5,287 nt of DNA from a virus (lineage: Duplodnaviria > Heunggongvirae > Uroviricota > Caudoviricetes), in IMG/VR virus record IMGVR_UViG_2681813269_000005; one strand, 5' to 3'. Positions 2,577 through 3,122 of the stretch are shown piece after piece. The position numbers were made by a program, and so were the translations under genes. Position 1 is the first letter of the stretch, and the number at the start of each line of letters is the position of its first letter. The notes under the pieces are model-generated. The model ran no database searches. It was not told the origin of the DNA and saw nothing but the letters and a program-made list of their open reading frames with translations.

Positions 2577-3122
2577 TCAGGAAGAACCTTCCGGAGAGAC
2601 GGACCATTCAATGGCGTTATATGAGGATTTATCAGTGATGGTGCTGAAATCCATCGCCTGCAGCGATTTCGCGTAAATACGGTACGCTTTCAGTTTTTCC
2701 CGGTCTTCGTCGCTGATTAGCCCCAGCAGCAGGTCTTCTTCCCATTCCCCTGTCCGGGCACTGACCTGAGCCAGAAGGGCATCACGCTCATCTTCCGCTT
2801 TGAGTCTGTAGTCAAAGACAAATTCATCATTGCGGTAAAACCAGTAACCCGGCGCGGTAATGCGGCGGTTGGCGGTAATATCAGGAACTTCAATAACACT
2901 GGCGTTACGGGGTTCAATGCCTGTCACATCCTTACCGACCCACACCACGCGCCCGTCTCCGGTGTAAACCATTTTTATGGTGTCACTGGCAAAGTTCTTC
3001 TGTTCTTCATACCAGTTTTTGCCGTCTTCCGAAAAAAGCCAGGTGACATCATACTGTTTTGTCAGCTGATATTATTCCGCGGTTTTCGGATTACCTGCCG
3101 TAATATTTTTTAAATGCAACAT
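2577..3122 (-). pseudogene. tail fibre assembly protein (Mu U / P2 G-like) interrupted by an in-frame TAA at 3072-3074; the uninterrupted ORF is 2577..2972
   Basis: ATG at 3120-3122 lies 2 nt after the tail fibre stop and encodes [16 protein letters not shown], then TAA, then an open in-frame stretch [33 protein letters not shown] before the ATG of ORF 2577..2972. That ORF carries the C-terminal Tfa-like region (DITANRR..., LLLGLISDEDREKLKAYRIYAKSLQ). The N-terminus matches the MxHLKNI..NPKT.EQYQLTK start I recall for U/G-family assembly proteins, with Q replaced by the stop. Confidence 0.7.

Follow-up and report, generated by a model that had tools for sequence, protein, structure and literature searches.

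The tail fibre assembly (tfa) gene of a Mu-like prophage remnant in Shigella sonnei is interrupted by an ochre codon at codon 17, which raises the question of whether this stop is a genuine nonsense mutation within a homologous reading frame, and whether the interrupted gene, its truncated products or its very loss could still serve a purpose. Comparison with intact orthologues identifies the stop as a single-base change carried by the S. sonnei chromosome, and it very probably represents an inherited nonsense mutation that drifted to fixation in an already non-functional remnant, in other words ordinary decay.

An ochre codon in a gene adjoining the tail fibre

The window, referring to the whole stretch of 5,287 nucleotides that was analysed, contains the following features.

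1..565: partial second copy of the phage_tail_N gene
603..903, minus strand: C-terminal fragment of an IS66-family transposase (DDE_Tnp_IS66, E=3.6e-16, and DDE_Tnp_IS66_C, E=4.7e-17, residues 125-236)
904..1334, minus strand: 5' part of a DUF4376 gene, cut at about 904 (weak Pfam DUF4376 match)
1285..2553, minus strand: second fibre-like gene, encoding a prophage tail fibre N-terminal domain protein of 422 aa (Pfam phage_tail_N, E=2.4e-63; gene order of locus L001)
2577..3122, minus strand: pseudogene of a Mu U-type tail fibre assembly gene (tfa), with 181 codons before its natural stop and an ochre codon at position 17
2577..2972, minus strand: 131-aa ORF left downstream of the ochre codon, opening with the first ATG there (database entries AAZ89357.1 / Q3YYQ5_SHISS)
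3063..3065, minus strand: codon 20 of tfa, an in-frame CTG taken as the start of a 162-aa product in six S. sonnei loci
3072..3074, minus strand: ochre codon TAA, codon 17 of tfa; the ancestral codon is CAA (Gln)
3125..4165, minus strand: tail fibre gene, 346 aa, start MHRIDT (weak gp37_trimer match; named phage tail protein, Shigella sonnei)
4152..4742, minus strand: Mu gp48-like (YmfQ family) baseplate gene (Pfam Phage_Mu_Gp48, E=2.3e-25; annotation of L001)
4742..5239, minus strand: 3' fragment of the baseplate J/gp47 gene, about 165 codons (match to the C-terminal part of Pfam Baseplate_J)
5240..5287: terminal 48 nt of an IS1 copy, truncating the prophage

On the minus strand, tfa runs from the ATG at 3122-3120 to a natural stop codon at 2579-2577. 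The fibre gene ends with TAA at 3127-3125, followed by the dinucleotide CA and then the tfa ATG, and this spacing of 2 nt suggests translational coupling; the native tfa ATG has a Shine-Dalgarno (SD) sequence of median strength (-3.0 kcal/mol). Translation of the minus strand from 3122 to 2574 encounters TAA at codon 17 (3074-3072) with the frame open on both sides, and the sequence past the ochre codon stays in frame and homologous down to the natural stop. Behind the ochre codon, 33 sense codons precede the first ATG, GTG or TTG, at 2972, while the in-frame CTG at 3065 lies only three codons downstream of the stop. Translation thus reproduced the coordinates and counts of an earlier note on this DNA, which had placed the TAA at 3074-3072, followed by 33 codons and a 131-aa ORF from the ATG at 2972; the CTG at 3065 is missing from that note.

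Assignment to the Mu U-type assembly proteins

The family of the interrupted gene is evident from the protein in which Gln17 is restored. This protein scored 87.7 bits against Pfam Caudo_TAP (PF02413), far above the cut-off of 22.1, and the 131-aa ORF alone still scored 75.1 bits against the same cut-off. The restored protein also matched phage Mu U (PDB 5yvq_B, E=8.2e-39), aligning residues 1-158 of the query to residues 1-164 of the chain. Both sides of the stop align with Mu U from residue 1, upholding the earlier claim that the peptide is continuous across the stop as an N-terminus of the U/G family, and the segment ...KTAE*YQLTK... of the window corresponds to ...KTKEQYQLTK... in Mu U, where residue 17 is Gln. 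The profile match, the homology of the N-terminal domain and the position directly 3' of the fibre gene, an order shared by the loci of FDAARGOS_944 (L001), CFSAN029787 (L002) and L020, all assign the gene to the Caudo_TAP family of Mu U-type Tfa proteins. The full uninterrupted reading frame expected of a functional member is broken by TAA17, which makes the tfa gene of the window a pseudogene belonging to this family.

In a phage collection, 173 records matched the Tfa query and 133 of them covered at least 80% of it. The best 30 of the 173 matches all begin at query residue 1, and include the Stx2e phage phiP27, with 75.8% protein identity over the full length, as well as the U' genes of Mu, D108, SfMu and P7 at about 50%. 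Bacterial homologues likewise align from residue 1. The earlier note had held that homologues naturally starting at the equivalent of 2972 would speak against a nonsense mutation; the phage and bacterial homologues start instead at the equivalent of 3122, and natural short forms of this kind were rejected. A 162-aa S. flexneri cluster member (P0003) was also considered as a natural short form and rejected, as the 181-codon frame of S. flexneri 2457T is intact and the 162 aa reflect the choice of start site.

The resemblance to phage Mu extends from sequence to organisation. The first 50 residues are nearly identical to those of gpU/U' (TfaMu, 5YVQ chain B), including Q17, in tblastn, Mu-type U' genes are about 50% identical across 90% of the query, and tfa directly follows the fibre gene in both. 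In contrast to Mu gpU, the window gene is interrupted at codon 17 and its C-terminal 25 residues are unrelated to Mu U; the locus is an IS-truncated remnant rather than a phage, and has neither an invertible G segment nor an invertase. A search of the window for an invertible cassette of the Mu G-segment type revealed no relevant or flanking inverted repeats, nor any recombinase domain in the window ORFs scanned. A G-like invertible organisation was rejected, given the lack of inverted repeats and the location of all tail genes on the same strand.

The ancestral codon in intact relatives

Among complete E. coli genomes, L001 and L002, classed as E. coli/enteroinvasive E. coli (EIEC), are the closest relatives, with DNA identities to the window tfa of 99.3% and 97.6%, respectively; both have CAA at codon 17 and an annotated intact 181-aa tail fibre assembly protein. 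In this collection a related gene is carried by 200 genomes, none of which matches the window exactly (best 99.3%), since Shigella is not included there. Both copies in S. flexneri 2457T (L016 and L017) also have CAA at codon 17, and intact 181-aa tfa orthologues are annotated in both E. coli and Shigella. The exact read-through protein with Q17 (P0017) exists in public genomes, on 18-21 contigs, and two loci encoding it were taken for comparison (L020 and L025). Across the tfa ORF (2577-3122), the sole difference between the window and either of these loci is base 3074, which on the plus strand is A in the window and G in the intact alleles.

All intact-allele relatives examined (L001, L002, L016, L017, L020 and L025) therefore agree on CAA, encoding Gln17, and TAA17 is a single C-to-T transition on the coding strand (G to A at window base 3074), converting CAA to TAA. 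As only base 3074 differs from intact L020 and L025 over the tfa ORF, the homology across the stop is far beyond chance. The earlier proposal of a single CAA-to-TAA (Gln to ochre) change in a gene of the Mu U/P2 G family is directly confirmed, by relatives with CAA that are otherwise identical or nearly so, by the existence of P0017 and by Gln17 of Mu U; the comparison with orthologous prophages which that note had recommended returned CAA and uninterrupted 181-codon ORFs. For instance, WP_000902847.1 of FDAARGOS_944 and P0017 both derive from such ORFs, the latter being identical to the window protein save for Q17.

A different lesion was observed in two S. flexneri loci (L014 and L015), where a 1-nt deletion in the A6 run of tfa codons 4-6 (AAAAAA to AAAAA, at about locus positions 5955-5960) puts the tfa ATG out of frame. 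It may have inactivated the gene independently, or else stem from a sequencing error in the homopolymer.

An allele shared by S. sonnei genomes

Gene calls for the 131-aa residual ORF exist on 16 contigs, ten of which were retrieved, all of them Logan assemblies, with run accessions in four series (ERR6005xxx, ERR3633354, SRR13515267 and SRR29091133). TAA17 was present in all ten, at 99.9-100% identity to the window. For access to further S. sonnei loci the 346-aa fibre protein was used as a handle, which is listed in 1508 blocks of the collection. The 27 contigs read with the same fibre are represented by six loci (L026-L031) of finished or draft S. sonnei genomes, four of them from chromosome-size contigs, and each of the six carries TAA17; one of the four, HE616528.1, is presumably S. 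sonnei 53G. The 131-aa product itself corresponds, by exact protein look-up, to AAZ89357.1 / Q3YYQ5 of S. sonnei Ss046, which identifies S. sonnei as the source of the window.

That the true genome might have CAA, with TAA introduced by sequencing or assembly, deserves consideration because an error of this kind would look just like what is seen, an intact allele altered at one base and identical elsewhere. The same T, however, recurs in ten independent short-read assemblies from four accession series and in the six further loci, and base 3074 lies outside any homopolymer. With TAA in 16 independent loci, error was rejected as an explanation and its probability is negligible; the earlier concern about a possible misread base is settled by assemblies from independent read sets, which have T and not C at the first base of the stop codon. 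The tfa nonsense mutation is thus a real and inherited feature of the S. sonnei chromosome. Moreover, the 346-aa fibre occurs on at least 1000 contigs, whereas the intact Tfa was seen on no more than about 20, and several of these have it in another context; the data suggest that TAA is the allele commonly carried by S. sonnei.

The disrupted prophage module

The order J, gp48, fibre, tfa, phage_tail_N, DUF4376 and ipaH is the same in L001, whose tfa is 99.3% identical in DNA to that of the window. Different from the window, L001 and L020 retain the whole baseplate module, with genes for a DNA circularisation protein, gp44/P, gp45, gp46 and a full J of 360 aa upstream. Homology of the window to both loci ends at 5239, inside their 360-aa J genes. 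The adjoining 48 nt (5240-5287) match at least 5000 plasmid records at 100% or near-100%, and in L013 the match to this IS1 end stops 8 nt before the CDS of an IS1A transposase. On the other side, homology to relatives with a full DUF4376 gene ends at 904. The surrounding module cannot function or build a tail, because IS1 truncates J at 5239/5240 and the IS66 transposase fragment truncates DUF4376.

An ipaH effector gene follows the DUF4376 gene in L001, L002, L003 and L016. Since DUF4376 continues in the relatives and is then followed by ipaH, an IS-mediated rearrangement has removed or relocated that end in the window. The remnant is not uniformly decayed, as the fibre, gp48 and phage_tail_N ORFs around tfa are still open. 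No sigma-70-like promoter was predicted on either strand between 2400 and 4300; the IS1 copy could be a source of outward transcription.

Several further observations were made on the genes of the remnant. ORF 603-1334 is a chimera of 243 aa, in which the N-terminal part of DUF4376 is fused in frame, at about 903/904, to the C-terminal 120 or so residues of the IS66-family transposase, and this exact ORF is absent from a collection of 15 billion proteins. The 3' end of phage_tail_N and the 5' end of the DUF4376 ORF overlap by 50 nt in another frame (1285-1334), as they do in L001 (5804-5853). Window positions 1-300 are 100% identical to 1909-2208, while identity falls to about 94% over the whole of 1-564 (compared with 1909-2490), and a separate copy of 417 aa in L025 matches segment 1-565 at 99.6% identity. 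The mosaic boundary within this partial copy is sharp, suggesting that two prophage remnants underwent gene conversion or recombined with each other.

The fibre gene is mosaic as well: it encodes 346 aa in the window but 402 aa in L001, whose copy is longer by about 168 nt, and the two diverge in a patch at 3397-3432. Positions 2147-3811, which reach from the 5' portion of phage_tail_N through tfa into the C-terminal part of the fibre, are 99.6% identical to L023, whose N-terminal part of the fibre and baseplate genes differ; fibre tip and chaperone seem to have been exchanged as one module. Regarding the start of the fibre gene, a program-made ORF list gave ATG 4177 (350 aa) as opposed to ATG 4165 (346 aa). 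The anti-SD duplex is -6.1 kcal/mol (GAGGATG) for ATG 4165 versus +1.2 for ATG 4177, and ATG 4165 gives a 14-nt overlap with gp48 as in L001 and fits the 346-aa protein of public genomes.

Truncated products, read-through and selection

A shortened chaperone, started at ATG 2972 (131 aa) or at CTG 3065 (162 aa), might still help the fibre to fold: the frame downstream of the stop is fully open and identical to that of intact alleles, the 131-aa ORF remains recognizable as Caudo_TAP at 75.1 bits, and the 162-aa product has been called in six S. sonnei loci. The signals for its translation are poor, however. ATG 2972, situated 99 nt past the ochre codon, has an anti-SD duplex of only -0.2 kcal/mol, with about 80% of strand positions scoring as well or better, so that the 131-aa product offered by the earlier note as one outcome finds no support, and an internal promoter for the truncated ORF was rejected as none was predicted in 2400-4300. 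CTG, for its part, is a very poor initiator in E. coli, and none of the phage or bacterial homologues begins at either position. According to PMC9608196, which cites the 5YVQ work, the fibre is bound by the N-terminal domain of Mu Tfa, and trimerisation is brought about by the C-terminal one; on that basis, products without residues 1-19 (CTG) or 1-50 (ATG) would lose part of the fibre-binding domain. The remaining tail machinery is also absent, and a functional truncated chaperone is very improbable. Synthesis of full-length Tfa by read-through, through an ochre suppressor tRNA or programmed recoding, would profit from the intact frame on both sides of the stop, yet is less probable again, to the point of being barely credible. 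Among stop codons TAA terminates most efficiently in E. coli, and conservation of the stop codon, as expected of programmed read-through, was not found: all intact-allele homologues examined outside the fibre-defined S. sonnei set have CAA and Mu U has Gln, the opposite of what recoding predicts. The window contains no tRNA gene and no Rfam element at the gathering threshold, whereby a suppressor tRNA or recoding element within the window was rejected and the suppressor background considered in the earlier note is left unsupported; this search covered the window only.

Selection may alternatively have favoured the knockout itself, if loss of the chaperone stopped the production of a folded fibre that is costly or dangerous, for instance through cross-assembly onto superinfecting Mu-like phages or recombination with them. 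In favour of such selection, the TAA allele occurs in every S. sonnei locus examined and is apparently fixed, with the neighbouring fibre ORF open. In a clonal organism like S. sonnei, however, fixation is expected by drift or hitch-hiking alone; the mutation came after IS1 had taken away the upstream module, and it represents one event that shows no recurrence. Among the orthologues, the one independent lesion observed is the 1-nt A-run deletion of the two S. flexneri genomes, which could be a homopolymer error. Selected knockout accordingly ranks as a poor prospect, on a par with the truncated chaperone. Taken more broadly, the chance that the stop is not neutral, either through selected loss of the chaperone or through retention of a re-initiated N-truncated Tfa (162/131 aa) in a new role, is only marginally better and remains slim. 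The reading as neutral decay of a dead remnant gene is strongly preferred over all of these.

Order of events

The relative timing of the two lesions can be read from L025 (GCA_900159285.1). This locus shares the identical J::IS1 junction, continues into IS1 and differs from the window at 3 positions in 3065 nt, but has CAA at tfa codon 17. Because the IS1 junction is identical while the codon is still CAA, the stop is later than the IS1 insertion, and the ochre mutation arose after IS1 had cut the module from the other tail genes.

The course of events is read as follows. A Mu-like tail/baseplate remnant, of the kind adjoining ipaH genes in Shigella and EIEC, resides in the S. sonnei chromosome, where IS1 removed everything upstream of mid-J, which would include the other tail genes and any late promoter. 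An element of the IS66 family has disrupted the downstream end of the remnant. A C-to-T change after the IS1 insertion converted Gln17 to ochre in a tfa gene no longer under selection, and in the clonal S. sonnei lineage to which the loci read belong the TAA allele probably became fixed by drift. Should there be any transcription across the region, translation would stop after a peptide of 16 residues, and no phenotypic consequence is expected. The mutation is almost certainly neutral, judging from the state of the module around it, and tfa is likely not expressed and its truncated products likely without function. The earlier suggestion that the S-like fibre lacks its chaperone is formally true; it is irrelevant, since no tail could be built from the fragment.

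Meaning for Shigella sonnei

The gene has the properties of a pseudogene in each respect compared: a single-step lesion relative to intact orthologues, reality of the lesion in independent data sets and a non-functional module around it. Hawkey et al. (2020, PMC7373316) reported that 719 CDS (14%) are inactivated in one or more S. sonnei genomes, and that within lineages a median of 91 pseudogenes is shared. The ochre tfa resembles these products of reductive evolution as a lineage-fixed nonsense mutation in an IS-flanked S. sonnei region, and differs in nothing material, except that a prophage-remnant gene rather than a metabolic gene is affected. A literature search on pseudogenes and prophages of Ss046 yielded nothing specific to the tfa gene of the window. 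The event is not novel in kind, fitting the well-documented reductive evolution of Shigella, and its truncated product is already deposited.

For annotation, one and the same DNA has received three calls, namely 131 aa (Ss046), 162 aa from CTG (six S. sonnei loci) and 181 aa in its intact form (relatives); the 131-aa and 162-aa calls both describe pieces of a single pseudogene and should be marked as such. With the IS1 junction in common, base 3074 is G in L025 and A in the window, and this polymorphism could serve as a lineage marker. Were the loss of the chaperone selected after all, it would, for example, prevent the remnant fibre from being borrowed by, or interfering with, co-resident or superinfecting Mu-like phages, and if the stop were non-neutral the open fibre, gp48 and phage_tail_N ORFs would constitute a domesticated unit rather than debris. 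On the strongly preferred reading as neutral decay, the ochre tfa carries little biological weight and adds one more fixed point-mutation pseudogene to the IS-rich, heavily degraded genome of S. sonnei.
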